In this document: one piece after another, positions 13,096 through 53,184 of the stretch | Position numbering within the stretch: position 1 is the stretch's first letter | Layout of the letters: every line of letters begins with the position of its first letter | NCBI GenBank assembly: GCA_041665465.1 | Contig: JBAYIU010000001.1 | Span: 1,213,873 to 1,277,872 of the forward strand | DNA: 64,000 nucleotides | Origin: Candidatus Woesearchaeota archaeon | GTDB lineage: Archaea; Nanobdellota; Nanobdellia; Woesearchaeales; GW2011-AR9 | Direction of reading: 5' to 3' | Position numbers and translations under genes: made by a program | Notes under the pieces: generated by a model | What the model saw: only the letters and a program-made list of their open reading frames with translations | What the model was told of the DNA's origin: nothing | Database searches by the model: none

Positions 13096-13101
13096 AATCT
13101 A

Positions 13102-15920: not shown

Positions 15921-15936
15921 CTACTCTAGAATAATA

Positions 15937-16389: not shown

Positions 16390-16482
16390 TTATTTTAGGA
16401 AGAGATTTAGATTTATAATCTTATTGATGAGGAATAGTAAATCTGCTCGGAGAAAAGTTGATTACAACATTTGAGAATAGAC

Positions 16483-36530: not shown

Positions 36531-36544
36531 TAAGAAAAATTAGC
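36531..36544. repeat. casposon target-site duplication, left copy (14 bp)
   Basis: taagaaaaattagc identical to 53171-53184. Confidence 0.9.
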
Positions 36545-36589
36545 GGGTATATAGATATAGGCCTGTTTTTCGGACTATATCTAAACCCT
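36545..36589. repeat. casposon left TIR
   Basis: gggtatatagatataggcctgtttttcggactatatctaaaccct is the exact reverse complement of 53126-53170. Confidence 0.95.
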
Positions 36590-36681
36590 CCCTTATTTTT
36601 TAAATAATCTAAAAGTTCAAAAATAGTTATTCGCTTTTTTAATAACAAGATTTATTAAATTTAACCCTTATTAATTGTTAA

Positions 36682-37296
36682 ATGGATTTGAATAATATCT
36701 TGGAAGGACTGATTAGTGGGGTTTTGGCTACATTAATCTCTTCAATGATTATATTTCTCTTCAAGAAAGTTTTTGGGAATAAAACAAAAACTGATGACTT
36801 AGAAAAGGCAAGTTTTTCAGGTTCATTTTTTAGAAATCCATTTTTGATTTCGTTATTTCTTTCTTCTTTTGTGGTTGTCTTAACTTTTTTCAGTCTGGTT
36901 TATCAATGGCAAATATTCAAGTATGTTTATCTTATTCTTGCAGATGTAGGGTTAGGGTTTATTACCTTCTGGATATACAAGAATCAATGTCCGAAATGCA
37001 ATGTTATTTTTAAGAAGAAACTTATCAATAAGGAAACGTTGAAAGAAGAGAAGAGACCATATCATTATAGGGATGAAACTATATATTTGTACTCTGACGG
37101 CTCGGAGAAAGACCATAAATATTCTGGAGAAGAGAAAATAAAAATGGAGACATGGAGAACTGAAAAAGAGTTTTATAACTGCACCTCTTGTAACCATAAT
37201 TGGGACAAAATATTTGAAAAGAATTTAGACATTGATAATCGCCCTAAACCAAATAAAGTGAGAACACGGTTTAATCCACCTAATCCATTTAATTGA
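36682..37296 (+). CDS. membrane protein with C-terminal zinc ribbon (casposon cargo)
   Basis: Three N-terminal TM segments; CPKCN..x..CTSCNH. Confidence 0.5.
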   Translation: MDLNNILEGLISGVLATLISSMIIFLFKKVFGNKTKTDDLEKASFSGSFFRNPFLISLFLSSFVVVLTFFSLVYQWQIFKYVYLILADVGLGFITFWIYKNQCPKCNVIFKKKLINKETLKEEKRPYHYRDETIYLYSDGSEKDHKYSGEEKIKMETWRTEKEFYNCTSCNHNWDKIFEKNLDIDNRPKPNKVRTRFNPPNPFN

Positions 37297-37426
37297 TTAC
37301 AATTAAGTAAAATGAGAAACGTGAATATAAGATGGGATTTGTGAATCAAATGAGCAAGAAAAATGTAAAGACGATTGTAAGTGGTGCGGAGATAATAATT
37401 GTGATGAGATTGAAAAGGAAATATGT

Positions 37427-37672
37427 TTGATAGATTGTGGGCTGGATAATCAATCTGCTTATAAAAAGATTAATGTTGTAAGTGGACTAAACGGGTCCAT
37501 TCAAAGAATTGATGAAAATAATATTTCTTATAATGTTATTTCTATCATGGATGTTAAATTATTTGGTTTTATACACTCACAAACTAAGATTATTACAGAG
37601 ATTAATAAAAAGGAGGGTAGTATAATTCATGTGGATAAACCTTGGTGGTTAATATTTCCAAACAAAAAATAG
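37427..37672 (+). CDS. hypothetical small protein; frame open upstream to 37331 without ATG
   Basis: TTG start in track; upstream in-frame Cys-rich stretch CESNEQEKCKDDCKWCGDNNCDEIEKEIC has no ATG. Confidence 0.3.
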   Translation: MIDCGLDNQSAYKKINVVSGLNGSIQRIDENNISYNVISIMDVKLFGFIHSQTKIITEINKKEGSIIHVDKPWWLIFPNKK

Positions 37673-37693
37673 GATAGAGAAAGAAAACTAAAA

Positions 37694-37966
37694 ATGATAA
37701 ATTGCTCTAAATGTCATAAGGAAATCGAGAATACAGATAAATTCTGTAAACATTGCGGTTCGTCTCAGGAAGTTCCCGAGGAGTTCAAAAGGATAATTCG
37801 GCTTTTTTCCGAAGACCCAATGTTTAGATCAAAATTGCTGAATGCGTTTTTAGAAGTGTCAAGTAAGGATATTAATATTGCAATTAAAGCTTTTGAGGTC
37901 TTTTTTGATCGATTAGACAAGAGTGATCGGGAGATTATAAAGAAAGTATTTCACGGGAAATCATAA
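37694..37966 (+). CDS. zinc-ribbon protein
   Basis: CSKCHKEIENTDKFCKHCG. Confidence 0.5.
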   Translation: MINCSKCHKEIENTDKFCKHCGSSQEVPEEFKRIIRLFSEDPMFRSKLLNAFLEVSSKDINIAIKAFEVFFDRLDKSDREIIKKVFHGKS

Positions 37967-37998
37967 CAAATATATATTAACTCTTTTATTTAGTTATT

Positions 37999-38691
37999 AT
38001 GGATCCAGATTCACATAAAAATCCTAAGATTTGGAATTGGTGGTTTTTATCCTATTTGGTTTTAGTGATTATATTTGGATTATTATTCCGCTGGCAATAC
38101 TCAAATTGGTTAAATTTTACCTGTCTTGGTATGTTGATATTAATACAATTTGTTTTTAATATAAAGATTCAGTACGAGTTAAAATTTAAGATAATAAACT
38201 GGTTTTCTTTCTTCTTGCTTATCTTAGTGTCCATCGCTTATACTTTAACAAAGCTGAATAATGTGGGTCTTGCTCTTTTTACTTTATTAGTAGCTGTTTT
38301 TATCACTTTTCTTGTTGCCTTGATAGTTCATGTACTAAATTTGTGGAAGAGTAAGGGAGATAGAAATAAAAGAGTTATAACGACAATTACTTATTACTTA
38401 GCCCTTGCCTTTACGGGGATCATTCTTTTTGGATATATTTTCGCTTTGATAGGGATTAACCACCCCGAGAATAGTTTAAAATTCACTGGGGTTAACAATA
38501 CCTTAAATGGTCAGGATTACATTTATTTTAGTGCCGTAACTTTCTATTCCGGAGCTTTGGGAGATATAATTCCGTTAGGATACTCCAAAATGGTAATGGT
38601 GATGGAGTTAGCTTTTAGTTATATAATTCATATTATCATATTGGGGATTGTTATTTCTAAATTTGGTTATAATTCCAACGAAAGAAAGTAA
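37999..38691 (+). CDS. ion-channel (K+-channel-like pore, Ion_trans_2-type) protein with non-canonical filter
   Basis: YIYFSAVTFYSGALGDIIPLG + following TM matches the pore-helix/filter/inner-helix pattern, but filter TFYSGALGD replaces T[VI]GYGD; about five preceding TMs. Confidence 0.55.
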   Translation: MDPDSHKNPKIWNWWFLSYLVLVIIFGLLFRWQYSNWLNFTCLGMLILIQFVFNIKIQYELKFKIINWFSFFLLILVSIAYTLTKLNNVGLALFTLLVAVFITFLVALIVHVLNLWKSKGDRNKRVITTITYYLALAFTGIILFGYIFALIGINHPENSLKFTGVNNTLNGQDYIYFSAVTFYSGALGDIIPLGYSKMVMVMELAFSYIIHIIILGIVISKFGYNSNERK

Positions 38692-38719
38692 AATGCTTCA
38701 TTAAACTTTTTAGTGGTGG

Positions 38720-38944
38720 TTAATCTTTCGACATCGCATCTAGGAGTCCTCTTCCAAAAAGAAGCAATACTATTGCTACAAGGATGAAGGCTAGTACAAC
38801 CATCCATGAATAACCTGATTCAAAAGCCGTTTTATATACGGTGGTAGCCCAATAGGTGACACCAACCAGTACACTAAATTTTATAGCTACGTATATTCTA
38901 TTTGGTTTGAAAGTTTCTTTTAACCATTTTTTCAATTTGTTCAT
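38720..38944 (-). CDS. small two-TM protein
   Basis: 74 aa, two hydrophobic helices; last gene of the wHTH-HEPN operon. Confidence 0.45.
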   Translation of the reverse strand: MNKLKKWLKETFKPNRIYVAIKFSVLVGVTYWATTVYKTAFESGYSWMVVLAFILVAIVLLLFGRGLLDAMSKD

Positions 38945-38973
38945 GGGAATATTTTCTCCTGTTATGTAATTAT

Positions 38974-40029
38974 TTAACTCTTTTTGGAAAGATATATCTC
39001 TTTAAACAGGGCATCGTAAACTGTAATATATTTTAAACAAAGTTCTGGATTAAGTAGTGGGGTCTCTTTTCCGTGAATAATATCATTCCGAAGTCTTTTA
39101 GCATCTTTTAGTGTTTGTTGATCTTTAAATTGAGAAAAATCAAACGAAGACTGAATTTTACTAAATTCTTCCAACTTTTCAATGAAATTATAATCCACCT
39201 TCTTTCCTTTCTTCAAGATTTTCATTGGGAAATCTATTCCTTGGATTTCAAAATATCTTATTGTTAACAAATGTTCAATAGCTGATTGGGCTTCAGTAAT
39301 TGCAATTCGTAACAATCCCATTTTGTAAAACTCTATACTATATTTCATTATCCTTAAGGGTTCAAAAAAATGATCTTTATTATTGATAAAATCACTAATT
39401 CTTTGAGAATTATTCGCTAGCTCTAAATGATGTGCTTGATTTGGAACTGCGAATTTGCCACCACCAAACGCACCAATAATTATATTTTGGTTATTTGGTA
39501 ATTCCACTACCCTCTGATATAAACTTCTCGAATCTATGGGAAAAACAGAATATTTATTATTAACATATTGGTGGGTCTCGATCAATTGATTAACCAACTT
39601 CAAAATGTTATGAATAAAGAACTTGTTACGTTTTCCACTCATCCAATCTTCTATTTGTTCTTTAGTTTTTTCAGGATTATCCTTTGTTAATGAAACATTG
39701 TCAAGATCATCATTAAAAATATCTTTATTAAATACAAACTTTGCCTTTAGTCTCGTTTTTACATTATCACCAAACCGATCTTCTTCATTGATAAACAATG
39801 CAGTAGTACCAGTTCTATTAATTCCAGGTATATCCAAAATTCGTTCAACGATCGATAATCTTACCTCAAAATTATCATTAGAGTTATTCAATTCTAAATT
39901 TGTATCTAATTCTAAATTCCTAGGAATAGTAAACTCAAGTATATATTTCTGGAGGCTATGTTCCATAATCAAAGAGAAGGTCTTTCTTTTAATATACTTT
40001 TGGATGTTAATCTCAACAGATAGCCCCAT
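38974..40029 (-). CDS. HEPN-motif protein (putative RNase/abortive-infection-like)
   Basis: C-terminal AKRLRNDIIHG (R-N-x3-H) at nt 39073-39090; helical C-terminal domain. Confidence 0.5.
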   Translation of the reverse strand: MGLSVEINIQKYIKRKTFSLIMEHSLQKYILEFTIPRNLELDTNLELNNSNDNFEVRLSIVERILDIPGINRTGTTALFINEEDRFGDNVKTRLKAKFVFNKDIFNDDLDNVSLTKDNPEKTKEQIEDWMSGKRNKFFIHNILKLVNQLIETHQYVNNKYSVFPIDSRSLYQRVVELPNNQNIIIGAFGGGKFAVPNQAHHLELANNSQRISDFINNKDHFFEPLRIMKYSIEFYKMGLLRIAITEAQSAIEHLLTIRYFEIQGIDFPMKILKKGKKVDYNFIEKLEEFSKIQSSFDFSQFKDQQTLKDAKRLRNDIIHGKETPLLNPELCLKYITVYDALFKEIYLSKKS

Positions 40030-40044
40030 ACGGTTTATAGAAAA

Positions 40045-40317
40045 TTACTTCAAGGAATAAAGTCTCTCAGTCCTTTTAGTCTTATCATTCTTTCTTTGCT
40101 TAACGAATCCTAAAACTTCCATAGTATCCAAGGCTTTCTTAATTGTTCTCCATTGTGACTTAGTTTTAATAGAAATCTGCCTGACTGAGAGCTCACCTTC
40201 TTTCTCAAGAAGCTTTTTTATCTCCTCTATTATTTGGGTAATCGGCTTCCTTACCATATCTGCATAATAGTACCGATACATTTTTATAGCAAGTCTGCAT
40301 AATTGTGCATATATCAC
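40045..40317 (-). CDS. winged-HTH DNA-binding protein
   Basis: GELSVRQISIKTKSQWRTIKKALDTMEVLGFVKQ; possible alternative start at 40257. Confidence 0.55.
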   Translation of the reverse strand: MIYAQLCRLAIKMYRYYYADMVRKPITQIIEEIKKLLEKEGELSVRQISIKTKSQWRTIKKALDTMEVLGFVKQRKNDKTKRTERLYSLK

Positions 40318-40412
40318 AAAATGAAACCAAAAGCAAAAGAATTTGTTAGGCGTTGGTGGTTCTTCTATAGTTGGCCAATTCCACAGATTATAACATTCTT
40401 TAAAAAGAAGAA

Positions 40413-41015
40413 ATGAAAAATAAAATATTTTATCTCATAGGAATAATTTTAGTTTTGGGTTTACTAGCTTATGCACTAATGAAGATAAATTCACCAGAGG
40501 ATAACAATATTAAATCGGAAAACTCTCAAATTTATTCAGATAACAAGATTACTTTCTCAATACCCTCCGAACTAGAACCATATAAAACATCATTTGGATT
40601 AGATTATGGAATTATTTTATCCAAATTTGAAAATGATACTGCTATTATTTCAATTACTATTGTAAGCTCTTCAATAGATCCCAAATCTGTTTTTGCTGAA
40701 AATTGTGAATCTACAACTTCATGTGGTCATGAAAAAATAGCACAATATTATTTTAATATGAACTATGAGGAACTAATAAAACTCCATCCATATCTTTCTG
40801 AAATGTCAATAAAAACTATTAAAGATGAATTGAATTTGCAGAACTCTTATGAAAAGTCGGTTCTAATTGAAGATAATATTGTTTTTGGAACTAAGGTAGT
40901 ATTTGACACGAATTCAAACAATCTTGTAAGAATAGTTTATTCCTACTCAAGTGATCTAAATTCAGAATTTCAAACTGATATAAATAGCATTATCAACAGC
41001 TTAGAGTTTATTTAG
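40413..41015 (+). CDS. N-terminally anchored/secreted hypothetical protein
   Basis: Signal-anchor IFYLIGIILVLGLLAYALM. Confidence 0.45.
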   Translation: MKNKIFYLIGIILVLGLLAYALMKINSPEDNNIKSENSQIYSDNKITFSIPSELEPYKTSFGLDYGIILSKFENDTAIISITIVSSSIDPKSVFAENCESTTSCGHEKIAQYYFNMNYEELIKLHPYLSEMSIKTIKDELNLQNSYEKSVLIEDNIVFGTKVVFDTNSNNLVRIVYSYSSDLNSEFQTDINSIINSLEFI

Positions 41016-41036
41016 TTATTATCTCATTTTCCAAAG

Positions 41037-41804
41037 ATGATTCCAGATGAAATAGAACAAAAAGGTATTTTGGCAAACTTTGTAGAAGGTGTAGAAAGTG
41101 GAGCAAAAGGAGGATTAGTTCTATTAGGGTTAATATTTTTAGGATTAATATTTGCTTTGATTGTAATTTCGCAGGAGAATAATTCACCTCATTCTCAAGA
41201 ACCGACAAATCAAGTAATCACTTCTAATCAGGTTTATACTCCTACAAGCAATGAAAATATTGATAACTATCAAGACAATTCAATTATACCCCCTAATAAT
41301 TTTAACCAAGATATCTTTGATAATATTCAAGTGAAAGGTGAAGAAACATCAAAAGCATATAATCAATGTACTTCTTTAATCAAAGATAAATATTCAAAAA
41401 TAAATTTAGTTCGAGATCAATCAACTTTATATCAATTTGATAGTGATGTTAAAGATTGTATCAAAGAATATTTAATCAAAGCTAAAGAATTTACCTCAAT
41501 AATTAAAGATAATCCCAGTCAAATTACCCCTAATTCCATTATAAATATTCAAAGCTCATTAATATCCCAATCTAATTATCTTAAGCAAATTTCACAACAA
41601 TACTCTTTGGTTAGTTCTCAGAGACATTACTATATTCATGGAATTTACCAAGCAAAGTCTATTATTCAACTAGCACAGATAATCGGAGAGACAAGTTCAG
41701 CAATCTCATCTGGTAGCCCCATAGATGCGATAAATTCCTTGCAAGAGCTTAATGATTGGTGGTATTACAATGGTGGAGTTATTGACACGGGATGGAGTCA
41801 GTAA
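41037..41804 (+). CDS. membrane-anchored hypothetical protein
   Basis: TM LVLLGLIFLGLIFALIVI; Asn/Gln/Ser-rich ectodomain. Confidence 0.45.
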   Translation: MIPDEIEQKGILANFVEGVESGAKGGLVLLGLIFLGLIFALIVISQENNSPHSQEPTNQVITSNQVYTPTSNENIDNYQDNSIIPPNNFNQDIFDNIQVKGEETSKAYNQCTSLIKDKYSKINLVRDQSTLYQFDSDVKDCIKEYLIKAKEFTSIIKDNPSQITPNSIINIQSSLISQSNYLKQISQQYSLVSSQRHYYIHGIYQAKSIIQLAQIIGETSSAISSGSPIDAINSLQELNDWWYYNGGVIDTGWSQ

Positions 41805-41837
41805 ATATTTTCTAAAGAAAGATTAATATTTAACATA

Positions 41838-41873
41838 TTAATCCTAGTTAATCTTTTAATCCCATTTAATCCT
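41838..41873. repeat. four phased TTAATC(C/T) repeats at the Cas1 3' end
   Basis: Copies start at 41838, 41848, 41857, 41867 (9-10 bp spacing). Confidence 0.5.
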
Positions 41874-43077
41874 TGATCCCCACTTTCATCTTATTCCATT
41901 CTGCGAGTCTGTCTCTAACTTGCTTGTTCATCGTAAAGGGCTTGTCGGAAGCTGCGTTTTTCTTCATATAATGCAAGGTCCCTTTAGAAAAGCCCAAATT
42001 CTTCCAATCGGTGTAAGAGATACCCATAATTTTCTTGCGAATATCATCGCTATCTTGCCTTTTTAATCCTTTAATCCCTGACAAGAATGTAATCTCCTTC
42101 TTTTTACCCACCAAAAGCTGAGCTAAATTTGTCGTTTGTTCTTGAATAACATATCTCCATGCCCATTGCTGATTATTAAATTCAGCTTTTTGATTAAACA
42201 TCTTTTCAATTTCAGTTAATACTTTTTTAGCACCTGTAGATCTGAGCCTTAAATTATAATTTTCAGTCCTAATAAAGTCCTTTTTCTCCATAATATCGTT
42301 CTCAATTAAACTAATCACAACCAAATCTATTAAGAATCTAAACGGTTCTTGTAAATCATATGCCAAACTGTTCTTTCCAAGATTGGCTTCATGTAAAAAG
42401 CCTATGTGTGTGTCTAATCCGGCTGTGTTAATCGCTTTCAAACATTCAGCTTCTAATATAGCGTAACCATAATTAAGCAAGCAATTGACAGTATCTCCGG
42501 CACCCCAAGGTCTCTTTTGAAATTCTCTTGTTGTAAATTCATACTTTTTCGGTACTATTTTCCTCAATTCTTGCCAATAAAAACTCGCGATTCTTCCTTC
42601 TGTTATCATTAAATTCTTGATGGTTTTGGCTTTCCTAAAATAAGGTAATTCTTTAGAGAAATCAGTCCTTAATTCCGGATATCGTAATTTTAACCAGTCT
42701 AATGTTTCTTTGGTTCTTTCAAATTTAGCTTCAAGAAATTTTCTTGCCAAATCCATTCTTTTTTGAGGATCAGAAAATGCTTGATATTGTGCAAACTTTG
42801 TCTTTACTTGTACGCTTTCAGGCGGAAGCATGGTTGTAAGAAGTTTACCCTCCCAATTAAGAATTGAGATCTGAACATTATGCTTAATTAGCCATCTAAT
42901 GGCATCTATTGATATATTTCCACTTCTACCGTAAATTACTATGTGGTTTACATCAATTCGTTTCGGAGAGAAGATATACTCTTCATTATTTTTCCCAGCC
43001 TTATCTGTGCCGTTTTTGATATGAATTTTTGAATTATCAATCTTAATCGATATTCCATACCCATCTAACAAGAGCAT
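41866..43077 (-). CDS. cas1: Cas1-family casposase with C-terminal HTH
   Basis: NYGYAILEAE, THIGFLHE, YDLQEPFRFLID (Cas1 catalytic E/H/E region); C-terminal ISYTDWKNLGFSKGTLHYMKK HTH; ATG 43077 preferred (GTG 43083 in track). Confidence 0.9.
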   Translation of the reverse strand: MLLLDGYGISIKIDNSKIHIKNGTDKAGKNNEEYIFSPKRIDVNHIVIYGRSGNISIDAIRWLIKHNVQISILNWEGKLLTTMLPPESVQVKTKFAQYQAFSDPQKRMDLARKFLEAKFERTKETLDWLKLRYPELRTDFSKELPYFRKAKTIKNLMITEGRIASFYWQELRKIVPKKYEFTTREFQKRPWGAGDTVNCLLNYGYAILEAECLKAINTAGLDTHIGFLHEANLGKNSLAYDLQEPFRFLIDLVVISLIENDIMEKKDFIRTENYNLRLRSTGAKKVLTEIEKMFNQKAEFNNQQWAWRYVIQEQTTNLAQLLVGKKKEITFLSGIKGLKRQDSDDIRKKIMGISYTDWKNLGFSKGTLHYMKKNAASDKPFTMNKQVRDRLAEWNKMKVGIKD

Positions 43078-43079
43078 TT

Positions 43080-43943
43080 TCACTTTTTACCCTCCTCAAT
43101 TCCAAATGAAGAATCGGATATCCCTAGTAAAGTTAATGCTTTAAATCTGATTTGACTAATGAATTGTGCCGCCCCCTTTTTCTCATCTTTTCTTAGCTGT
43201 AGTTCTAAATTAAATAGTTCGGTTCTATGTTTTTCAATTATTTTAGCTGTAGGACTATGAATGTAATCGTTTTGTACTATTTCTGGAGATTCTAAGTTTG
43301 TTGCGTCCTTTCTTAGTTGATCAATAACTATATCTTGCTCATACTTTCCTAAGAAAAAGATGATGTGTGTTCGAAGATTAGGATATTCTCTTATTTTTGG
43401 AGGAATATTTTTTAGAAGAGATTTTAGGATTTCTATAAACTTAGAAGTATTATAGGGTTCTATTCCCTTTTTGAACACTTCATTGTTAGTTATTCTAAGT
43501 AACATATCGAGAAGTTCAAAATCTTTTGTACTCATATTTTTAACTAAAATATCTAGTTGTTTAGGTGAGAGAGCATATCTCTTACTATAAATTTCTATCT
43601 CCTTAAGAGCCATCTTTACTTCAATTGGAGATCCATTTTCAAGATATTTCATTATTAAGTCAATATGTTCTTTTATCCCATAAGAAATAGTAAGTGTGAT
43701 GAATGATGCTCGTTTATCTTCATTCTTAATACCAAATATTTGAAGAGCTTCTTCGGTTGTTAATCTCTTTAGAAGTCCCTCTTCTACCATTTTTGATAAG
43801 TTACTTTCAACAGTAGGTTTACTAAATCCAATAATTCCTTTATTTAATTCTACTAATTGGCTTACTAATTTCTCTCTTCTAATAACGGGCAGTTTAAATA
43901 AGATTTCTTCCACATTTGTCTTAAAGTCTGTCTGAATATTCAT
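43080..43943 (-). CDS. wHTH-containing protein immediately upstream of cas1
   Basis: LVSQLVELNKGIIGFSKPTVESNLSKMVEEGLLKR; stop lies 2 nt before the Cas1 ATG. Confidence 0.55.
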   Translation of the reverse strand: MNIQTDFKTNVEEILFKLPVIRREKLVSQLVELNKGIIGFSKPTVESNLSKMVEEGLLKRLTTEEALQIFGIKNEDKRASFITLTISYGIKEHIDLIMKYLENGSPIEVKMALKEIEIYSKRYALSPKQLDILVKNMSTKDFELLDMLLRITNNEVFKKGIEPYNTSKFIEILKSLLKNIPPKIREYPNLRTHIIFFLGKYEQDIVIDQLRKDATNLESPEIVQNDYIHSPTAKIIEKHRTELFNLELQLRKDEKKGAAQFISQIRFKALTLLGISDSSFGIEEGKK

Positions 43944-43967
43944 TTTATTTGTCTTAATTTATGATAA

Positions 43968-44006
43968 TATTGATATCATTATTGATATTAAAGTATATAT
44001 TGATAG
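43968..44006. promoter_or_regulatory. three TATTGATA(T/G) boxes in the divergent casposon promoter region
   Basis: Boxes at 43968, 43980, 43998, between the cas1-operon start (43943) and the RHH gene start (44039). Confidence 0.45.
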
Positions 44007-44038
44007 TTAATAAATATTTCGTTGATTTTGGTGTTTAA

Positions 44039-44179
44039 ATGAGAAAAAAACCAAGATTTGTCTTTACCATAAATATCCATCTGAAGGAAAAACTTTCAAA
44101 AATTGCGCAAAAACAAGGATGTTCACAAGCTGAAGTCTTAAAAATAGCACTAGTGAAGTATTTAGAGGCTGAAAGATGA
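44039..44179 (+). CDS. ribbon-helix-helix (CopG/Arc-like) protein, 46 aa
   Basis: MRKKPRFVFTINIHLKEKLSKIAQKQGCSQAEVLKIALVKYLEAER: beta-strand then two helices; overlaps the next gene (ATGA); not in ORF track. Confidence 0.6.
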   Translation: MRKKPRFVFTINIHLKEKLSKIAQKQGCSQAEVLKIALVKYLEAER

Positions 44180-44817: not shown

Positions 44818-44820
44818 GAA

Positions 44821-45246
44821 ATGGTCACTAAAGAATTAGAGTTAAGATTTTGGCATGAGGAAACACTTAGAGGAAATAAGCTTCCAATTAATCCTTTATT
44901 TAATCTTAACTCGGTTTTTGAAGAGCACCATATTTTTGGGAAATCAAATTCCAATAAAACAGCCTTAATCAATAAGGAAAGACACGATTTTATCACTAAT
45001 AGACTTAATCTATTGCCTATAAAATGTCGAAAAGACAAAACAGTGATCTTTTGGAGTAATGTTGCTTCAACTTTAGAATTAATGGCTTTTGAAATTCGGC
45101 ATTTCATTTTCTTATATACCCATTCTCAAAATGAAGAAGCTAATGAATTCACGTTGAGCAGAGGTTATCATCAAAAATTTATTGACAAAATTATTTTAAG
45201 CATATGGAGAAAAATAGAAAATGGAAAACAAAGAAATAATGGTTAG
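44821..45246 (+). CDS. possible HNH (His-Me finger) nuclease
   Basis: EEHHIFGKSNSNKTALINKERH fits HH..N..N..H loosely; lacks the usual Cys pairs. Confidence 0.4.
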   Translation: MVTKELELRFWHEETLRGNKLPINPLFNLNSVFEEHHIFGKSNSNKTALINKERHDFITNRLNLLPIKCRKDKTVIFWSNVASTLELMAFEIRHFIFLYTHSQNEEANEFTLSRGYHQKFIDKIILSIWRKIENGKQRNNG

Positions 45247-47884
45247 AACATACACAAAATTGAAGAATATCAAGGATAAAATAACTAATAAAAATCATAA
45301 CTATCAAGAATATAAGGATATCTTAGTCTTTGATACCGAAACAACCGCGGATGAATTCCAAAACCTTAAATTTGGATTTTTCCAGATATATTCTTTAGGA
45401 AATTTGAAATTTCAAGGCATATTTTATGAACAGATAAATATAACAGATCAGGAATTTGAAGAACTAAAAAAATATGATAAAGACTTTCTCTTTATGACCA
45501 GAGAAGACTTTGTTCATAAGGTATTTTATCCAACAGTATATGATAACAACGCTCTGTGTGTGGGTTTTAATATATTCTTTGACTTATCAAGACTAGCTTT
45601 CAGATTCCCTACCCCACGAAAAGGCGCAACACATATTCAACTTCAATTAAGTAAGTACCAAAATTACCCAGATATTGAGGTGGACCATAAAGGTGGAAAT
45701 TTAACTTTTTTTAGATTTGGAAAGGCGTTTGATTTTCATAAAAAGAAATATAAAAACCATTTTGCTGGCAATTTCTTAGATTTGATGAGTTTAGCTTGTA
45801 CATTTTCAGATAAAAAAAGAATTTCACTCAAAGATGCTTGTAAATTGTTTGATACTACTGAAAAAAAGATAGAAGATATCAAGCATGGAAAAATCACTAA
45901 AGATTATATCAGATATTGTGTGCAAGATGTAAAAGCCACTTACTCGTTATATGAAAAACTACTTGATGAATTCAAAGAATATACCATCAATAAAGATATT
46001 TGTAAAGTGTATTCTTCTGCATCTTTGGCAAAAAGTGCATTACAACAATTGGGAGTAAACCCGTGTATGAAACAACACCCAAACATCCCACATAAGCATA
46101 TAGAAAATTGGATGAAAGCATATTATGGTGGGAGATGTGAGTTAATGTACAGAAAAATTCCCGTTAAGGTAACTGTTCTGGATTTTCGTAGTATGTATCC
46201 AACAACAACAATTATAATGGATTTGTGGAAGATGATTATTGCTGAGAAAATAATTGAGGAAGATGCAACAGAGAAAGTAAAAAAGATACTAGAAACGGTT
46301 GATTTACATTATTTACAAGATAAAAATAACTGGAAAGGACTGGTGATACTTGTTAAAATAATCCCCAATGATGATTTTCTTCCTCAAAGATGTTGTTTTA
46401 AAACTAAGTCTAATATCTCAAATATAGCTTTAAATCATATTACTTACAAAGGGGAGTTATATTATGCTTTACCGGATATAATTAGTTCAGTTCTAAAAAC
46501 AAGCAGAATACCCCAAATTACAGAAGCAATTGAGTTTATTCCAATAGGGGTTCAGAAAACTTTGAGAAAAACCCCCTTATTAGGAATAAACATTGATCCA
46601 AGAGAAGATAATTTCATTAAAACAATTATTGAAAGAAGACAACAAATAAAAGATCAATTTGAAAAAGAGACAGATAAAGACAAAAAGAAATATTATGATG
46701 GGCTTCAAAAAGCACTAAAAATTTTAGCTAATTCTTTAACATATGGTATCTATGTTGAGATGAATAAGAAAGATTCTAACAACCTCCCTTTTGAATTAGA
46801 AAATTTTGATGATGAATCAGACTTTATTATGAACTCTTATGAAGAAGAAGGAGAGTATTTCCATCCCATCGTTGCAGTAAGTGAAATTGCTGGAGCCAGA
46901 CTTTTCTTAACAATGGCCCAAATCTTTGTTGAAAAGGCAGAATATCCACATTATTATACAGATACGGATAGTATGTTCGTCTCTCCTGAGATAGCTCAAG
47001 AGTTACAACACTTTTTTCAACCATTAAATCCGTATAGTTTTGATAAGCCGTTATTCAAACCTGAAAAAGAGAATCTCTTATTTTATGGAATAAGTAGTAA
47101 AAGATACGTTTTATACGAAATAATAAAAGATAAAATCGTTATTTATGGTACAGAAGAAGAGAAAGGGTACAAACTTCACGGATTAGGACATCTAACCGAC
47201 CCATTTTGTAGGAAAAACGGGGAAGATTGGCACAAAGAAATTTGGATGGATATTCTAAAGTTACATTATGGTAAAGTTACAGAATCAAATTTAGAAGAGA
47301 AATACTCTCAAAGCCATTCAATTTCAAATTTGACTGTATCAACTAAATCAGTATTTGAAAGATTTGCCAAGTATAATAAAGACAAACCGTTTGAAAAGCA
47401 AATAAAACCTGCAAATTTCTTTCACATAGGAGTTAAAGCTAACGGAGTAAAACCAATAAGCCCATTACGTGATAATCCCCAGGAAGCCCCCTATGCCCAT
47501 TTTTTGAATTATGAAACTTCAGAAACATTGATTGGAGAAGAATATTGGGGTACGCTGTGGTTATCATTACAAGATTATCTAAACCACCCAGAGAGTAAAT
47601 TTGATGGGGATATTGGTTGGCTTAAACGGAAACACATAGAAGTTACAAAAGTGGATAAAATAGGGAAAGAAATTAACGACTTGGATAAACATATCTTAAA
47701 AATAACTCTACCAAATAGATATTTAACAACAAAACAAAAAGAAGACCTAATCTTAAATATGGCGGTAGAAGAAGCTAAAAAGAGAGGAATATCCAAAAGT
47801 ACTTTATCTGACCAGAAAAAGTATATTAAAAACAACGAGAAAATTAAATGGGGTTCTAAAACGATGAGGAAGTTACTGAGTTAA
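45221..47884 (+). CDS. polB: family B DNA polymerase
   Basis: ExoI FDTETT, ExoII GFNIFFDLS, ExoIII YCVQDV, motif A DFRSMYPT, motif B KILANSLTYG, motif C YYTDTDS, KRY in SSKRYVLY. Confidence 0.92.
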   Translation: MENKEIMVRTYTKLKNIKDKITNKNHNYQEYKDILVFDTETTADEFQNLKFGFFQIYSLGNLKFQGIFYEQINITDQEFEELKKYDKDFLFMTREDFVHKVFYPTVYDNNALCVGFNIFFDLSRLAFRFPTPRKGATHIQLQLSKYQNYPDIEVDHKGGNLTFFRFGKAFDFHKKKYKNHFAGNFLDLMSLACTFSDKKRISLKDACKLFDTTEKKIEDIKHGKITKDYIRYCVQDVKATYSLYEKLLDEFKEYTINKDICKVYSSASLAKSALQQLGVNPCMKQHPNIPHKHIENWMKAYYGGRCELMYRKIPVKVTVLDFRSMYPTTTIIMDLWKMIIAEKIIEEDATEKVKKILETVDLHYLQDKNNWKGLVILVKIIPNDDFLPQRCCFKTKSNISNIALNHITYKGELYYALPDIISSVLKTSRIPQITEAIEFIPIGVQKTLRKTPLLGINIDPREDNFIKTIIERRQQIKDQFEKETDKDKKKYYDGLQKALKILANSLTYGIYVEMNKKDSNNLPFELENFDDESDFIMNSYEEEGEYFHPIVAVSEIAGARLFLTMAQIFVEKAEYPHYYTDTDSMFVSPEIAQELQHFFQPLNPYSFDKPLFKPEKENLLFYGISSKRYVLYEIIKDKIVIYGTEEEKGYKLHGLGHLTDPFCRKNGEDWHKEIWMDILKLHYGKVTESNLEEKYSQSHSISNLTVSTKSVFERFAKYNKDKPFEKQIKPANFFHIGVKANGVKPISPLRDNPQEAPYAHFLNYETSETLIGEEYWGTLWLSLQDYLNHPESKFDGDIGWLKRKHIEVTKVDKIGKEINDLDKHILKITLPNRYLTTKQKEDLILNMAVEEAKKRGISKSTLSDQKKYIKNNEKIKWGSKTMRKLLS

Positions 47885-48086
47885 TAAAATACCATCAATT
47901 CAGTTCTCCATAGGTAATGGATGGAAATCACATTTTCCGATAGATTTTTTGGCTAAATTTTCTCTACAATGTAATACGCTACACAAAGAAAAAGAAAAGA
48001 GATAAGTGGGCACTTGTCTCTCAAGGGATTCTTACTAAAATCAAATAAAAACCATTATAATCTGAGTGCCATTTTTATAAAAAAAG

Positions 48087-51000
48087 ATGTTCGATTCAAA
48101 TTATTATTCCGAATCATTAAAGAGAATAACAACCCTTGCCGGAGCTAGATATCAGTCCAATACTAATATCGAACTACCGATTATGCAACATTTTGATTTC
48201 TTCACACGAAATAGTATTTTTTATACAGATATCAGATCATTATATGGTAACTTATCGAGAAGTTTAGATAACTTTACTTTAAGTAAAGAAGTGAAATATG
48301 AAAGATATACTGATTTTATCTTCCAAAAAAAATTACTGTTAAAACGGCTGAAAAAAGTATTTCCTTATAATTCACAGATTATCCCCTGGAATATCATATC
48401 AACCCACCTAAGATTTATAAAATTTTATCTAAATCAGTATTCACATTTGTTAAGAGATTATATCTTAAAAAATAGTGAGATTAATACCTCTTTAAAAAAT
48501 GAAATTGAATCTAAACAACATTTTTTAAGAGAAGCAGATCGTTATCTTGAATCCTTGTATAACATATCTTCTGGATTGAATGGATCTCTATCTAATTCTA
48601 AATTATTATTAATTTCAGGAGGAGCGGGTAATGGAAAAACTCATTTACTAGTTGATGTATACCAGAGAAGAATTAGTGGTGAAGTGAAGCAACCAACTTT
48701 ATTTTTATTTGGAGAACAATTCTCTTCTAAAGAGAATATTTGGACTCAAGTAATAAACCAGTCTAAACTTCCATTTAAAAACCACAAGGAATTATTAGAT
48801 GAGCTGAGTGTAAGGTCATTTGAAGGGAATACGAATGGGTTAATAATCATAGATGCATTGAACGAAAGTGAACCACATCTCTGGAAAGAAAATCTTCGTA
48901 CAATAATAAATGATATTAAGGGATATCCGAATGTCTCACTAGTTATAAGTGTTAGAAATGGGTACCAAGAAGAGGTCTTTGATACCAATATAAAGGAACA
49001 ATTTATAGAAATTGAGCATCATGGTTACTCTCAAGACATACTATGGGATGTTACTGAGAAGTATTTTGAATACTATAATATTACTTATCCTGACTTCCCT
49101 TTATTAAATCCAGAATTCCAAAACCCCTTGTTCTTATTATTCTTTTGTAAAGCAAATAAAAACTCAAAGTTACCGGCTCGGCAGGAAAATGGGAACTGGT
49201 TAAAAAGTTTATTTGAAAGATACGTTATTGATGAAGGGCACGAAAAAGTATTAAAAAAGCTAAATCCTTCCTCTGTAAAAAAGTATGGGGAGGAGAATAT
49301 TTTATGGAGTGGTATAATCAAAAAAGGAATTGCTCCTTGGATGATATTTAATAACACAAGCACTATTGATGAAGAAAATTTAAAAAAGATAGTTGAAAAA
49401 TATCTCCCTGATTATAACGTTGATCAAGTAATTAAATTATTAGAGAATGGGAATATCCTTAACTCATATTGCTACTCCAAAATAAAATACTTTAAATTAC
49501 CTTTTGATAAATTTAGTAACCATATCATTGTTAGAACACTACTGGAAAATATCCCTAAGAAAGACCGTATTGATTCTTTTAAAGAAAATAATCCAGTGGG
49601 GAAATTTATATTAGCAAATAAATATAATTTTGGAATACTTGAAGCCCTTTGTATTCAAACACCGGAATTTTGCGATAAGGAATTATATAAATTAACACCT
49701 TATCTAGAAAAAAATCGATTATTATGGGATGCATTTACAGAGAGTATTATCTGGAGAAATCCAAATAAAATTAGTCCTGATTTGATTTTATTAATAAGAA
49801 ATAATCTAGAATTAAGAAAAGATTTCTTATTAAAGCCATTATTAAATCTTGCCCACATCGCAAAACATCCCCTTAATGCTGATTTTCTATGTCCAATATT
49901 AAAGAAGCAAAATATGGTGGAAAGAGATTCTTGGTGGTCAATTTTTTTACACAATAATTATGAAGAGGAAGGAGAAATCGTAAACAGAATTATTAGTTGG
50001 TCTATAAGTCACAACCAAAAACAAAAAATCTCTTCTGAAGTAATTAGATTGTATTCAATAACCTTAGCTTGGTTTTTGACTTCTTCAAATAGATCTATTA
50101 GGGATAAGGCTACAAAAGGATTAATCAATTTACTTAAGGATCATTTGATTATACTAAAATATTTATTGAATTATTTTAAGGATACTAATGATTTATACGT
50201 TTTGGAGAGATTATACTGTGTAACTTATGGATGTTGTTTATTAAATCCATCCGATTCAGAAAATGTTAAAGAAATTGCACTTCAAGTTTACAAGAACATT
50301 TTTGAGAATAATACTCCTCCCTCCCACATACTGTTGAGAGATTATGCGAGAGGCATTATAGAAACTGCAATAAATAATGGTATAAGTCTTGGAATAAATG
50401 AAGATAATATTAACCCTCCTTATAAAAGCCAATTTCCCGAGAAGCTTCCTTCAGATGAGGATATAAAAAGATATGAATTAGATTACCACTCAAAAGATGT
50501 TTATTTTAGCCAAAATAAAATTATTTCTTCAATGCAACCCGAACATACTACTCTTCATGGCAATATGTATGGGGACTTTGGAAGATATGTATTTCAAAGT
50601 GCACTATCTAATTGGGATGTTTCTAAATCAAAGATCACAATGCAACAACTAAGTAATTTATCTGTCAAAATTATCTTTGAAGATCTAAAGTATGATGTGA
50701 ATTTGTTGGGAGAATTTGATCGAAACTTAGATAGGTACTCCACATTTAATAGATCAGAACGGGACATTGAACGTTTTGGAAAGAAATATCAATGGATTTC
50801 ATTTCATATTGTTGCATCATTGGTTGCAGATAATTTTAAATTCAAACCACTACTTTTGGATACGGAATCAACAGAAATATACCGAGGTGCATGGAGTCCA
50901 CATATCAGAGATATAGATCCTAGCATCTCGATTAATTCAATCAGATTACAAAAGAAGCCAGAATTTAAAAACTTCCAAAAATATATTGATACATATGACA

Positions 51001-51794
51001 TTATGAAAGATGATTTTAGCAAATGGATTGTTTCATCCGGAGATTTATTAGATTTTGAAAAATGGTTAGATTTTAAAGATGATTCTAATCTCTTTTGGAT
51101 GAATTTAGGTGGTTCTTATGATTGGTATGAAGAAACATTACCGGAGGAAAAAGAGTATGAAAATTCGAAACGAGGTTTAAGAATTTGGTTTGAGAGTTAT
51201 CTTGTTAAAAAAGAGGAGTCTAAAATATTATTTAATTCTATTAAGGAAAAAAGTTTTTGGGGTGATTGGATGCCCAAGGGAACCACTTCTTATGAATTTT
51301 TTTTAGGGGAATATCCTCACTTTAAAGCGTGCCAAGATACAATTAGAAATTACGATTGTTGGACGGACATTAGTTCATTTGGGAAAAATTTATCTGCTAA
51401 GGTACTTCCAACATATGTAACTTACTCAACAGAAAGTAGTTTAGATTATTCTATAAATGGGGGATTTAGTATTAAACTACCCAACAAAGAAATAATTGAC
51501 AAGATGAATTTAAAATGTAATTCAAAAGGACAATCTTTTTTTGAAGATGAGCTGGTTTTCTTTGATAATTCTATAACTGAAACAGGTTTCCCAAATGGAA
51601 TTATTGCTAATAAAAAAAAGTTATTAGAATTTTTAAACAAGAATAATTTTGTTTTGTTTTGGAAGGTAATGATAGAAAAAACCATAATCGGTGGAAACAA
51701 AAATTTACAGGATTTTAAACCAAAAGAAATAAGCCTTTTAGTAATCATGAAGGATAACGGAACACTTGATTTAGTGAGTAAAGTAGAAAAATGA
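48087..51794 (+). CDS. large P-loop NTPase (STAND/NACHT-like) with helical-repeat and C-terminal domains
   Basis: Walker A GGAGNGKTH (nt 48618-48641), Walker B LIIIDALNES; HEAT-like SIRDKATKGLINLLKDH; 1235 aa. Confidence 0.6.
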   Translation: MFDSNYYSESLKRITTLAGARYQSNTNIELPIMQHFDFFTRNSIFYTDIRSLYGNLSRSLDNFTLSKEVKYERYTDFIFQKKLLLKRLKKVFPYNSQIIPWNIISTHLRFIKFYLNQYSHLLRDYILKNSEINTSLKNEIESKQHFLREADRYLESLYNISSGLNGSLSNSKLLLISGGAGNGKTHLLVDVYQRRISGEVKQPTLFLFGEQFSSKENIWTQVINQSKLPFKNHKELLDELSVRSFEGNTNGLIIIDALNESEPHLWKENLRTIINDIKGYPNVSLVISVRNGYQEEVFDTNIKEQFIEIEHHGYSQDILWDVTEKYFEYYNITYPDFPLLNPEFQNPLFLLFFCKANKNSKLPARQENGNWLKSLFERYVIDEGHEKVLKKLNPSSVKKYGEENILWSGIIKKGIAPWMIFNNTSTIDEENLKKIVEKYLPDYNVDQVIKLLENGNILNSYCYSKIKYFKLPFDKFSNHIIVRTLLENIPKKDRIDSFKENNPVGKFILANKYNFGILEALCIQTPEFCDKELYKLTPYLEKNRLLWDAFTESIIWRNPNKISPDLILLIRNNLELRKDFLLKPLLNLAHIAKHPLNADFLCPILKKQNMVERDSWWSIFLHNNYEEEGEIVNRIISWSISHNQKQKISSEVIRLYSITLAWFLTSSNRSIRDKATKGLINLLKDHLIILKYLLNYFKDTNDLYVLERLYCVTYGCCLLNPSDSENVKEIALQVYKNIFENNTPPSHILLRDYARGIIETAINNGISLGINEDNINPPYKSQFPEKLPSDEDIKRYELDYHSKDVYFSQNKIISSMQPEHTTLHGNMYGDFGRYVFQSALSNWDVSKSKITMQQLSNLSVKIIFEDLKYDVNLLGEFDRNLDRYSTFNRSERDIERFGKKYQWISFHIVASLVADNFKFKPLLLDTESTEIYRGAWSPHIRDIDPSISINSIRLQKKPEFKNFQKYIDTYDIMKDDFSKWIVSSGDLLDFEKWLDFKDDSNLFWMNLGGSYDWYEETLPEEKEYENSKRGLRIWFESYLVKKEESKILFNSIKEKSFWGDWMPKGTTSYEFFLGEYPHFKACQDTIRNYDCWTDISSFGKNLSAKVLPTYVTYSTESSLDYSINGGFSIKLPNKEIIDKMNLKCNSKGQSFFEDELVFFDNSITETGFPNGIIANKKKLLEFLNKNNFVLFWKVMIEKTIIGGNKNLQDFKPKEISLLVIMKDNGTLDLVSKVEK

Positions 51795-51879
51795 TTACAT
51801 CCATTTTTTACAGGGGAAAAATTGATTTGACAAAGTAAAGTCAGGTATTTGTAAAGTTAAAGAATCACTTCTTAAAAAT

Positions 51880-52953
51880 TTATTCATACTTTTTATGTTT
51901 AAAGTCGATCTCTAAAATAGTGGTTCTTTTATTTTCTAACTCTTTACTGAATTCGGTTTCTCCCTCAAAAAATTCTAATACATAAGGGTTGTTTTCAAAG
52001 AATAATCCGATTATCTCTTGAAATGAGGATATGCCTTTGTCAGCATCAATTCTAAATAATTTTAATCTCTTACACTCTTTTCTTATAAGGGAGTTTTTTA
52101 ATTCTAAGGAATTTCTTCTTTTGAATTTATCATAATTCCCATATACCCTTATAGCGCCATCAATATGGTTGCAAGAGGTTAAATCATTGTTTGTTATTGC
52201 ATGCAAATATCTCGTGTAAAATTTATGGTCTTCATTTTGGAAAAATAGGGTGTCTTCAAATTTAATGCCATTACTCGGAATTAACTCTTCAATTTGAAAA
52301 TGCCATTGACCATTTTGAAAGTTAAATAAAAATTCTGTTTTATCCAATATTGGGGCATCAAATGAAGAAGGTCCTTTTATTATGAATTCTTTGTCTGCTA
52401 AAGATTCTCTTACATGCTCTATTGTTTTTGGACCTTGCCAGTGAGATAAAAGCGTAGTATTTCTCCTAGTTTCAGGAATTCCTAAACAATTTGTATTGAT
52501 CGGGAGTTTTAAAGAGAAATTACCTTTCCAATTTTTAATTACCCATTCAGTGAAATGAAAATTTTTACTAAAAGCGTTTTCAAATATTAAATATTTGTTT
52601 TTGTATTTAAATCCGTTTTTATTTAAATCGGAATTATAAGGTACTTCTATAAGTCCATCTTCATCTAATTGAGATTTTAATTCAGAAAACTCATTAAAAG
52701 CATAATCTTTTTTTTCTTCTACAGCAACGTCCCATAGGTAATATTTTGTTGTTTTCATGGGATCAATTTTAATATTTTCTCCAAGAATTCTCCATAATTG
52801 GAATAGTTCTAAATCTTTATTGCTTTCTAGTTCTTTGTAAGCTTCTCTAACCTCTGCGGGTAGGAAATTGTTTTCCCATAAATTTCTTACTAGAATGTTA
52901 TTTTTACTGCAAAGTTCAACTAATTTTGCAATTTTCTGTGACAGCTCATTCAT
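51880..52953 (-). CDS. hypothetical protein (357 aa), convergent with the NTPase
   Basis: ORF only. Confidence 0.5.
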   Translation of the reverse strand: MNELSQKIAKLVELCSKNNILVRNLWENNFLPAEVREAYKELESNKDLELFQLWRILGENIKIDPMKTTKYYLWDVAVEEKKDYAFNEFSELKSQLDEDGLIEVPYNSDLNKNGFKYKNKYLIFENAFSKNFHFTEWVIKNWKGNFSLKLPINTNCLGIPETRRNTTLLSHWQGPKTIEHVRESLADKEFIIKGPSSFDAPILDKTEFLFNFQNGQWHFQIEELIPSNGIKFEDTLFFQNEDHKFYTRYLHAITNNDLTSCNHIDGAIRVYGNYDKFKRRNSLELKNSLIRKECKRLKLFRIDADKGISSFQEIIGLFFENNPYVLEFFEGETEFSKELENKRTTILEIDFKHKKYE

Positions 52954-53125
52954 GTGGCTGAAATAATGTAAGTAATATAATAAATTTGTGGAGACTGGAG
53001 TTGAACTTAAACTTTATTTGACATAACTCTCTATGTAATTAAACCTAAGTTTCAGCTGAATATAAAGGCTAACTCCTGAAACCCATTCTTCCAAAAAGAG
53101 AGTATATTTCAAGAATAAAAAGGGA

Positions 53126-53170
53126 AGGGTTTAGATATAGTCCGAAAAACAGGCCTATATCTATATACCC
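53126..53170. repeat. casposon right TIR
   Basis: Exact reverse complement of 36545-36589. Confidence 0.95.
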
Positions 53171-53184
53171 TAAGAAAAATTAGC
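53171..53184. repeat. casposon target-site duplication, right copy (overlaps the last 4 nt of the tRNA)
   Basis: taagaaaaattagc. Confidence 0.9.

Follow-up and report, generated by a model that had tools for sequence, protein, structure and literature searches.

Casposons, Cas1-driven self-synthesizing transposons that are presumed to be the ancestors of the CRISPR adaptation machinery, are flanked by target site duplications (TSDs) with a published median length of about 15 bp. Casposons of 6–16 kb have been reported, and one group of them, family 2, has been described only in Euryarchaeota and is marked by related C-termini in its Cas1 and its family B DNA polymerase (PolB) (PMC4046053). 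Examples are MetPsy-C1 of Methanolobus psychrophilus R15, the casposon of Methanosarcina mazei, and AciBoo-C1 of Aciduliprofundum boonei; the latter two target tRNA-Leu and tRNA-Pro, respectively, and a structure for the casposase from M. mazei was solved by Hickman et al., 2020 (as reported in PMC9939771). Here we describe an element of 16,626 bp in a 64-kb stretch of contig JBAYIU010000001.1 (hereafter, the window). We conclude that positions 36545–53170 are very probably a complete casposon of the family 2 type, which lies directly downstream of a tRNA-Gln(UUG) gene in the chromosome of a Woesearchaeota-like (DPANN) archaeon.

The element resembles the described family 2 casposons in several ways. 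Its Cas1 has the same C-terminal helix-turn-helix (HTH), its divergent PolB has a related tail, and a unit of g287 and cas1 faces an operon that comprises a ribbon-helix-helix (RHH) gene, g213, a small HNH-like gene, and polB. (We name anonymous genes by the length of their predicted products.) It also has terminal inverted repeats (TIRs), a 14-bp TSD, and variable cargo, and it is inserted downstream of a tRNA with a 4-nt overlap. Overlaps of 4–7 nt have been published (PMC4046053). In contrast to those casposons, it is found in a Woesearchaeota-like DPANN host instead of a euryarchaeon, it lacks a canonical HNH endonuclease, its length of 16.6 kb equals or exceeds the largest size reported, its target is tRNA-Gln(UUG), and it carries an Avs2 homolog and a HEPN-like protein. 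We file it as family-2-type, rather than as a new family, because the Cas1 HTH, the related PolB tail, and the tRNA target are all present, although the HNH gene and the euryarchaeal host are not. The ends, the target, and the core genes are:

36531–36544, no strand: left copy of the TSD, TAAGAAAAATTAGC, identical to 53171–53184
36545–36601, plus strand: left TIR, perfect over 36545–36589; nt 1–44 are an internal palindrome
41866–43083, minus strand: casposase, a Cas1 with a C-terminal HTH (PF01867, E 2e-65); 405 aa from GTG, or 403 aa from ATG as called in the source assembly
43080–43943, minus strand: g287, conserved core protein upstream of cas1 (30% identical over 280 aa to the M. psychrophilus R15 protein at the same position)
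44039–44179, plus strand: RHH protein of 46 aa, first gene of the polymerase operon (weak match to PF01402, E 0.011)
44176–44817, plus strand: g213, conserved core protein, 26–38% identical to its orthologs in five related loci
44821–45246, plus strand: g141, degenerate HNH-like protein that keeps HH...H and has lost both CxxC pairs
45221–47884, plus strand: family B DNA polymerase of 887 aa with a C-terminal HTH-like tail (PF00136, E 6.9e-10)
53114–53170, minus strand: right TIR, perfect over 53126–53170
53171–53184, no strand: right copy of the TSD, with its last 4 nt within the tRNA gene
53181–53297, minus strand: intact tRNA-Gln(UUG) gene with two introns, recognised by ARAGORN as tRNA-Gln(ttg) once spliced

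Element ends and the tRNA-Gln target

We set the limits of the element at 36545 and 53170 because of the positions of the TIRs and the TSD. The TIRs are 57 nt long and 93% complementary, with no mismatch in the outer 45 nt. A 21-mer taken from their tip is found only at the two ends of the element, even if 3 mismatches are allowed (0.00 matches expected by chance). The TSD is an exact 14-bp repeat that abuts both TIRs. With 1 mismatch allowed, just 2 copies are present in the window, versus 0.19 expected, and none of 100 shuffled sequences had 2 or more copies. Both the TIR and the TSD matches are far beyond chance.

A first-pass annotation of this DNA had reported the TIRs and a 14-bp TSD at both ends, and we reproduced both. 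It had also described the element as AT-richer than its surroundings. This is correct (30.2% GC in the element versus 36.1% in the flanks), but hand counts of 43–53% GC for the flanks were too high and overstated the size of the contrast. Two related casposons that are described below (L087 and L090) are likewise about 6 points lower in GC than their flanks.

The TIR tip reads ...TATATACCC-3'. The outer 44 nt of each TIR (36545–36588 and 53127–53170) are palindromic (GGGTATATAGATATAG...CTATATCTAAACCC), and when folded as single-stranded DNA, they form a hairpin (−8.8 kcal/mol, z = −4.1). No such hairpin is formed by the TIRs of L087 and L090; by eye, the TIR of L099, another relative (GGGATAGTTACATCTC...GAGATGT), looks palindromic as well. 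Internal palindromes occur in some casposon TIRs (PMC4046053), and the M. mazei casposase favours single-stranded substrates (PMC9939771).

The TSD ends in tagc (plus strand), and these 4 nt are also the final 4 nt of the tRNA-Gln(UUG) gene, including the discriminator. The pre-tRNA is 117 nt long (minus strand, 53181–53297). Reading by eye, we find a 7-bp acceptor stem (AGCCCCG/CGGGGCU) with discriminator A, a T-arm (UGCGG-UUCGAAU-CCGCA), and an anticodon arm (GUGCC-CUUUGGA-GGCAU). Intron 1 (53246–53275, 30 nt) lies in the D-arm and is bounded by a 4-bp helix (GGAC/GUCU) with 3-nt bulges. Intron 2 (53216–53229, 14 nt) is at the canonical position, 37/38, where a 4-bp helix (CUUU/AAAG) stands between two bulges of 3 nt each. 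Hand reading and local folds thus place both introns in bulge-helix-bulge-like motifs. Removing both introns leaves 73 nt, which ARAGORN calls as tRNA-Gln(ttg) with a regular cloverleaf. So, once the two introns are spliced out, the first-pass claim that the TSD ends in the 3' terminus of a minus-strand tRNA-Gln(UUG) is borne out. Also, homologous tRNA-Gln genes or their 3' halves are present at the syntenic place in related genomes.

Because of its two introns, this tRNA is overlooked by ARAGORN (with default settings) and by Rfam (with gathering thresholds), neither of which found any tRNA in the 64 kb. Running Rfam in E-value mode on the window gave only spurious weak matches. We considered two other parses of the gene and rejected them. 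An intron-tolerant run of ARAGORN gave tRNA-Leu(AAG) with one intron, which has a poor D-stem; removing intron 1 only gives Glu(UUC), with a poor D-stem or a non-canonical splice position. Both were rejected because the bulge-helix-bulge-like motifs place the second intron at 37/38, and also because of the acceptor end (A1-U72/A73), which we take to be the form that suits archaeal tRNA-Gln. As no further tRNA was detected in the 64 kb, other intron-bearing tRNAs may be hidden in the same way.

The casposase, its partners, and related casposons

The best match of the Cas1 in PDB is 6OPM, which we take to be the M. mazei casposase structure of Hickman et al. The alignment covers residues 1–399, including the C-terminal HTH (E 2.6e-151, 507 bits). 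The best match to a CRISPR Cas1 is far lower (4N06, E 2.9e-34, 122 bits). The protein passes the generic Cas1 model (TIGR00287, E 7.3e-61), but it scores below the cut-offs of all of the subtype-specific Cas1 models. The residues of the conserved Cas1 motifs (EG..A..YW, GLDTH.GFLHE, and LAYDLQEPFRF) are the same as in 6OPM. The HTH motif (G-F-S-K-G-T-L-H-Y-M-K) also aligns to 6OPM, and it is invariant in six relatives.

The PolB scores above the cut-off for PF00136 (38.7 bits versus 23), and its translation shows the Exo I–III and Pol A/B/C motifs. It is 42% identical over 873 aa to the PolB of M. psychrophilus, and it is homologous to Cas1-adjacent PolBs in five other loci. The relatedness of the C-termini of Cas1 and PolB, which is a hallmark of family 2, required a profile-profile comparison: plain BLASTP gave no match, but hhalign aligned 53 columns (probability 89.7%, E 1.9e-06).

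The g287-cas1 unit is divergent from the RHH-g213-g141-polB operon. We located all of the genes that the first-pass annotation had placed there (Cas1, and a divergent operon with an RHH protein, a helical protein that it had called HTH, an HNH-like gene, and PolB). This core module is collinear with the Cas1-PolB locus of M. psychrophilus R15 and homologous to it gene by gene (57% identity for Cas1, 42% for PolB, 30% for g287, 54% for the RHH protein, and 34% for g213). The R15 genome is one in which a family 2 casposon was described (PMC4046053). Family 2 casposons encode two different conserved HTH proteins, one of which has HEAT repeats at its C-terminus, and g287 and g213 are candidates for these two by homology and position. 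For g287 and g213, the HTH matches are sub-threshold, and in the case of g287, which is also conserved in L088 and L090, that assignment is weakly supported.

The gene that had been called HNH-like, g141, is a mixed case. The open reading frame (ORF) is indeed homologous to a set of small proteins with the pattern C..C-HH-C..CH, but all four of the zinc-binding cysteines, and thus both CxxC pairs, are gone, whereas the orthologs in L087, L090, and L093 retain them. Also, g141 does not match any HNH model, and no HNH of the PF01844 type was found in any ORF or reading frame of the element. The relatives of g141 themselves match the HNH model at E 0.15 or worse only, and a PDB profile search with the alignment of these HNH-like proteins gave no meaningful match.

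The best homologs of the Cas1 are metagenomic proteins (62–67% identity), and the 120 best also include proteins of Methanolobus, Methanosarcina, Methanococcoides, and Methanoregula (55–59%). No Cas1 relatives were found in IMG/VR, whether we searched with the single protein or with an alignment. Five related metagenomic loci (L099/L100, L093, L087, L090, and L088) have Cas1 proteins that are 59–67% identical to ours, and their core genes are arranged in the same order; the closest of them is L099/L100. In a rough neighbor-joining tree, which has no support values and no reference sequences from families 1, 3, and 4 or from CRISPR Cas1, the window's Cas1 lies in a metagenomic clade of 37 leaves that holds all of these relatives and no proteins from named methanogens.

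The relatives share the TIR tip of the window's casposon, GGG(A/T)ATA, and the position at which it is inserted. L087 (11,159 bp; TIR tip GGGATATATACA) lies at a tRNA-Gln(ttg) that lacks introns, with a 14-bp TSD (GCTACTTTTTATTA) at the 3' end of that gene. The TIR of L099/L100 starts 10 nt past the discriminator of an intron-containing tRNA-Gln(UUG). L090 (13,557 bp) has a 13-bp TSD over the last 4 nt of a different tRNA. Thus, the register (4 nt of tRNA plus 9–10 nt) is kept in L087, L099, and L090 while the duplicated sequence varies. As relatives are found in the same register at tRNA ends, with Cas1 identities of 62–67% for the two at tRNA-Gln(UUG), integration is site-specific, and a measured staggered cut beside a recognised tRNA end would produce this pattern. 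(In L099, AGAATCATACAGCCCCA occurs twice, about 130 nt apart, within positions 1–470 and upstream of the target tRNA-Gln, which looks like a partial duplication of the tRNA promoter or 5' region.) Overall, the first-pass reading of the locus as a casposon stands: the Cas1 is closer to 6OPM than to CRISPR Cas1, the R15 locus is homologous, and the relatives share the TIR tip and have TSDs of 13–14 bp.

How might the element have been inserted? Biochemical work on the casposases of A. boonei and M. mazei (summarised in PMC9939771) suggests the following steps. An oligomer of the casposase would bind the GGG-tipped 3' ends of the element and would recognise the T-arm and acceptor end of the tRNA as a leader-like determinant. 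The two 3'-OH ends would then be joined to the target, one to each strand, at points 14 bp apart. When the gaps are filled, perhaps by the PolB that the element encodes, GCTA and 10 T-rich nucleotides would be duplicated and the tRNA would be left intact; PolB is presumed to make the second strand or to fill gaps. These steps resemble the action of the CRISPR Cas1-Cas2 module, in which the Cas1 fold and active-site motifs are the same, the staggered attack is likewise directed by a leader-like determinant, and the target is duplicated like a repeat (PMC9939771). In contrast to that module, the element has no Cas2, array, or effector genes, its Cas1 has a C-terminal HTH, and what is inserted is a 16.6-kb element instead of a spacer.

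Host, mobility, and alternative explanations

The host is, judging from the genes that flank the element, a Woesearchaeota-like (DPANN) archaeon. The window's sequence is found on a 352-kb ENA contig, and its proteins recur on another of 1.56 Mb. The flanking arginyl-tRNA synthetase (ArgRS) is 76% and 75% identical to those of metagenome-assembled genomes (MAGs) labelled Ca. Woesearchaeota and Nanoarchaeota, which fits the earlier guess of a small AT-rich archaeon. Furthermore, a block comprising the tRNA-Gln, hyp103, a B3_4-domain protein, and ArgRS is common to about 25 MAGs, mostly labelled Woesearchaeota or Nanoarchaeota. None of these has Cas1, PolB, or Avs2 within 10 kb. The MAGs with the closest ArgRS (L003 and L019, 75–76%) lack the tRNA-Gln/hyp103/B3_4 neighbourhood within 10 kb, whereas many more distant MAGs have it, so local synteny is not a simple function of relatedness. 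The title "uncultured Methanosarcinales archaeon" is given to many contigs (from binchicken co-assemblies) with a Woesearchaeota-matching ArgRS and this synteny, and bacterial titles are given to a few; these labels look unreliable for identifying hosts.

Some of these genomes show what the site may have looked like without the element. Relatives with about 60% identity in ArgRS have the syntenic tRNA-Gln and no element. The unoccupied site in one of them (L023; GCTA followed by CTTTTTTCTTAAT) closely resembles the empty site as we reconstruct it (GCTA followed by ATTTTTCTTAAAA, or more fully, ...GTTAATTT-TAAGAAAAATTAGC-CCCGTGCGG...).

One alternative is that Cas1 is the remnant of a CRISPR adaptation module, which happens to lie in a genomic island after the rest of the CRISPR-Cas locus was lost. 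Public sources do label the homologs of this protein as "CRISPR-associated endonuclease Cas1," and it passes generic Cas1 models, but it fails all of the subtype-specific ones, and its bit score against 6OPM is four times that against the best CRISPR Cas1. Its linkage to PolB, the TIRs, and the TSD also point the other way. As the first-pass annotation had claimed, nothing else from a CRISPR-Cas system turned up: no repeat family with a spacing of 120 nt or less is present in the 64-kb window, and neither Cas2 nor any other Cas family is among the best 25 of the 48 PADLOC families matched by the 54 ORFs of the flanks. We find a CRISPR remnant scarcely credible. (The PADLOC matches listed for the flanks are ordinary subtilases, a Ser/Thr kinase, and radical-SAM proteins. 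Two giant subtilases stand in tandem at 4940–11839 on the minus strand; they are S8 peptidases (1227 and 1065 aa) and have PKD/Ig-like domains. The 658-aa kinase, at 25256–27232, and the radical-SAM/SPASM proteins, at 3175–4230 and 17617–18864, explain generic matches.) It is also very improbable that this is an integrative element or provirus of the integrase type, whose 14-bp repeats would be attL and attR cores rather than a TSD. Many archaeal integrative elements target the 3' ends of tRNAs and are flanked by short direct repeats, and the casposon is AT-richer than its host, as such an element might be. However, family searches of the element's ORFs did not identify any recombinase (tyrosine or serine), transposase, or integrase, or any virion genes (PHROGs included). 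The direct repeats abut perfect 45-nt TIRs, and a length of 13–14 bp and the same register recur in relatives with different repeat sequences, which is the pattern of a staggered-cut TSD and not of a conserved att core.

The remaining question is whether the casposon, which the first-pass annotation had called possibly active, can still move. It could be a casposon-derived island that integrated once, in the ancestor of the population, is no longer mobile, and was kept for its useful cargo (the Avs2 homolog and the HEPN-like protein). Several observations weigh in this direction and against our reading of a complete casposon of the family 2 type. In each of the three samples in which it occurs, the element is 100% identical and occupies one and the same site, so these samples do not demonstrate mobility in this lineage. 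We did not find a true empty site, a second copy, or an excision junction. Exact look-ups of both of the flanking host proteins gave filled sites only; a TIR search of IMG/VR found nothing; and a 31-mer across the empty junction had no exact match in JGI metagenome contigs. The JGI negatives are weak, as that collection also failed to return a JGI contig that is known to contain the TIR. (Three 19-mer matches to the TIR in JGI metagenomes had no further similarity and were judged to be due to chance. Short Logan contigs stop precisely 30 nt inside each TIR, but these are not evidence of a free form, because an assembly graph with k = 31 would break there.) In addition, the small HNH-like gene persists only as a relative that lacks the cysteines, and there is no canonical HNH; and one variant in the population (L086, JGI sample 3300037810), which is otherwise 100% identical to the window, has a 37-bp deletion in the cargo gene g357 (52302–52338) that frameshifts it into ORFs of 208 and 146 aa. 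The population is thus polymorphic for a broken cargo gene. Our assignment is also weakened by the roughness of the Cas1 tree and its missing references, as noted above, and by the cargo, whose role in defence is assigned from homology alone and whose Avs2 homolog has no recognisable effector.

Nevertheless, we doubt that the element is an immobile island. The TIRs, over their outer 45 nt, and the 14-bp TSD have kept their perfect match, every core ORF is open, and the conserved motifs of Cas1 and PolB are intact; the perfect ends and the open core ORFs argue for a recent insertion. The insertion is also not ancient, as the relatives with about 60% ArgRS identity do not have the element at their syntenic tRNA-Gln. 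As for the degenerate HNH-like gene, HNH proteins have no established role in casposition.

Cargo genes and implications

The casposon carries about 9 kb of cargo, with nine ORFs on the left arm and two (the Avs2 homolog and a 357-aa ORF) on the right arm:

36682–37296, plus strand: g204, with a hydrophobic N-terminal half and CxxC...CxxC pairs (only sub-threshold zinc-ribbon matches)
37427–37672, plus strand: g81, called as a gene in the source assembly (no family match)
37694–37966, plus strand: g90, with an N-terminal zinc ribbon (PF13240, E 3e-06)
37999–38691, plus strand: g230, with long hydrophobic stretches in its translation, probably a membrane protein (no family match)
38720–38944, minus strand: g74, a small hydrophobic protein, from its translation
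38974–40029, minus strand: g351, with a C-terminal HEPN-like domain, a predicted RNase or toxin (from a motif and a structural model); 330 aa in the source assembly
40045–40317, minus strand: small winged-HTH-like protein of 78–90 aa (sub-threshold matches to Csa3 HTH, Lrs14, Sta1, and FeoC)
40413–41015, plus strand: g200, with a hydrophobic N-terminus, from its translation
41037–41804, plus strand: g255, with one hydrophobic segment, from its translation
48087–51794, plus strand: homolog of Avs2 (AVAST type 2), a STAND NTPase, 1235 aa (NF041813, PADLOC Avs2, and PDB 9O4E)
51880–52953, minus strand: g357, convergent with the Avs2 gene (no family match)

The Avs2 homolog matches NF041813 with E 1.8e-264 and 880.9 bits, which is under the cut-off of 1000, and it matches the PADLOC model for Avs2 with E 5.5e-273. 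Residues 16–795 align to residues 179–962 of the 9O4E chain (E 1.8e-113). Avs2 proteins are built of three parts, namely an N-terminal effector, a STAND ATPase, and a TPR/C-terminal sensor. The protein shares with the Avs2 of 9O4E the helical extension, the STAND ATPase with intact Walker A (GGAGNGKT) and Walker B (LIIIDALNE) motifs, and the TPR region. It differs in that it begins at the helical extension, at about residue 164 of the 9O4E chain, so that the N-terminal effector of about 165 aa is absent; it also falls below the NCBIfam cut-off and is borne on a casposon. In most Avs2 proteins, this effector is an Mrr-like nuclease (PMC13601566). Homologs that align over their full length (1233–1293 aa) have the same effector-less architecture, so this is a natural subfamily of Avs2 and not a truncation. 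The nearest homologs (54–55% identity) lie outside of casposons, and one of them is beside an integrase and a resolvase. A conserved pair of Avs2 and g357 was considered and is not supported, as the neighbours of these nearest homologs do not include a homolog of g357. (A single-sequence structural model of g357 was too poor to use, with a pLDDT of 38.5.)

On the left arm, g351 looks like a HEPN-like protein, according to its predicted structure, although the support is weak. HEPN proteins have an Rx4–6H motif within a four-helix fold. The AlphaFold2 model has a mean pLDDT of 70.8 and about 90 in the C-terminal part. The top match from Foldseek is the HEPN protein 2HSB (probability 1.0, TMt 0.68, E 0.025), followed by several more HEPN structures. 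The motif R293-N294-x3-H298 (RNxxxH) is invariant in an alignment of 6 sequences. We found five homologs of g351, one of which is labelled as Nanoarchaeota archaeon, and no match to Pfam. Together with the downstream gene for the winged-HTH-like protein (38974–40317, minus strand), g351 could form a toxin-regulator pair. No homolog of g204 was found in the related casposons.

The cargo of the metagenomic relatives is wholly different from that of the window's casposon. L099 carries two C5 methylases, a BpuJI-like restriction enzyme, a Schlafen/AlbA_2 protein, and a PLD-type nuclease (6686–16439); L088 has an AlwI-type restriction enzyme with a D12 methylase (494–3941); L093 has a PD-(D/E)xK protein; and L090 has a trypsin-like protease with a 264-aa partner (11191–13425). 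None of them has Avs2, and their small HNH-like proteins, unlike g141, keep the CxxC pairs. As restriction-modification, Schlafen-like, PLD, and PD-(D/E)xK genes recur in these relatives, defence-type cargo seems to be common in this clade of casposons. As early as 2014, casposons were seen to carry methylases and a restriction enzyme (PMC4046053). In the window, the Avs2 homolog and the HEPN-like protein could plausibly give protection against viruses and favour the retention of the element; the first-pass annotation had mentioned neither of them.

A broader proposal would be that the casposons of this clade are self-replicating, tRNA-targeted shuttles for innate-immunity genes (Avs2, HEPN, restriction-modification, Schlafen-like proteins, and PLD nucleases). 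On this view, the sensing of a viral protein would lead the effector-less Avs2 homolog to signal in trans, and the signal would go to a nuclease encoded by the element or the host, or to the element's machinery for excision and replication. We consider this proposal improbable as it stands. If it were true, it would tie virus sensing to transposon behaviour in genome-reduced DPANN archaea, with no cell killing by Avs2 itself.

A practical implication is for annotation: the standard tRNA finders passed over the two-intron tRNA that marks the integration site. Our analysis also gives a rule for the target, namely the final 4 nt of tRNA-Gln(UUG) together with 10 T-rich nucleotides, which is held by this element and by at least two diverged relatives. 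In the literature that we searched, no paper links casposons to Woesearchaeota or other DPANN hosts, and none links casposons and Avs. The element brings to notice a subfamily of Avs2 without the effector domain, and casposons join the mobile elements that bear pattern-recognition defence genes. Finally, a structurally intact casposon of the family 2 type in a Woesearchaeota-like genome widens the host range of casposons to DPANN archaea.

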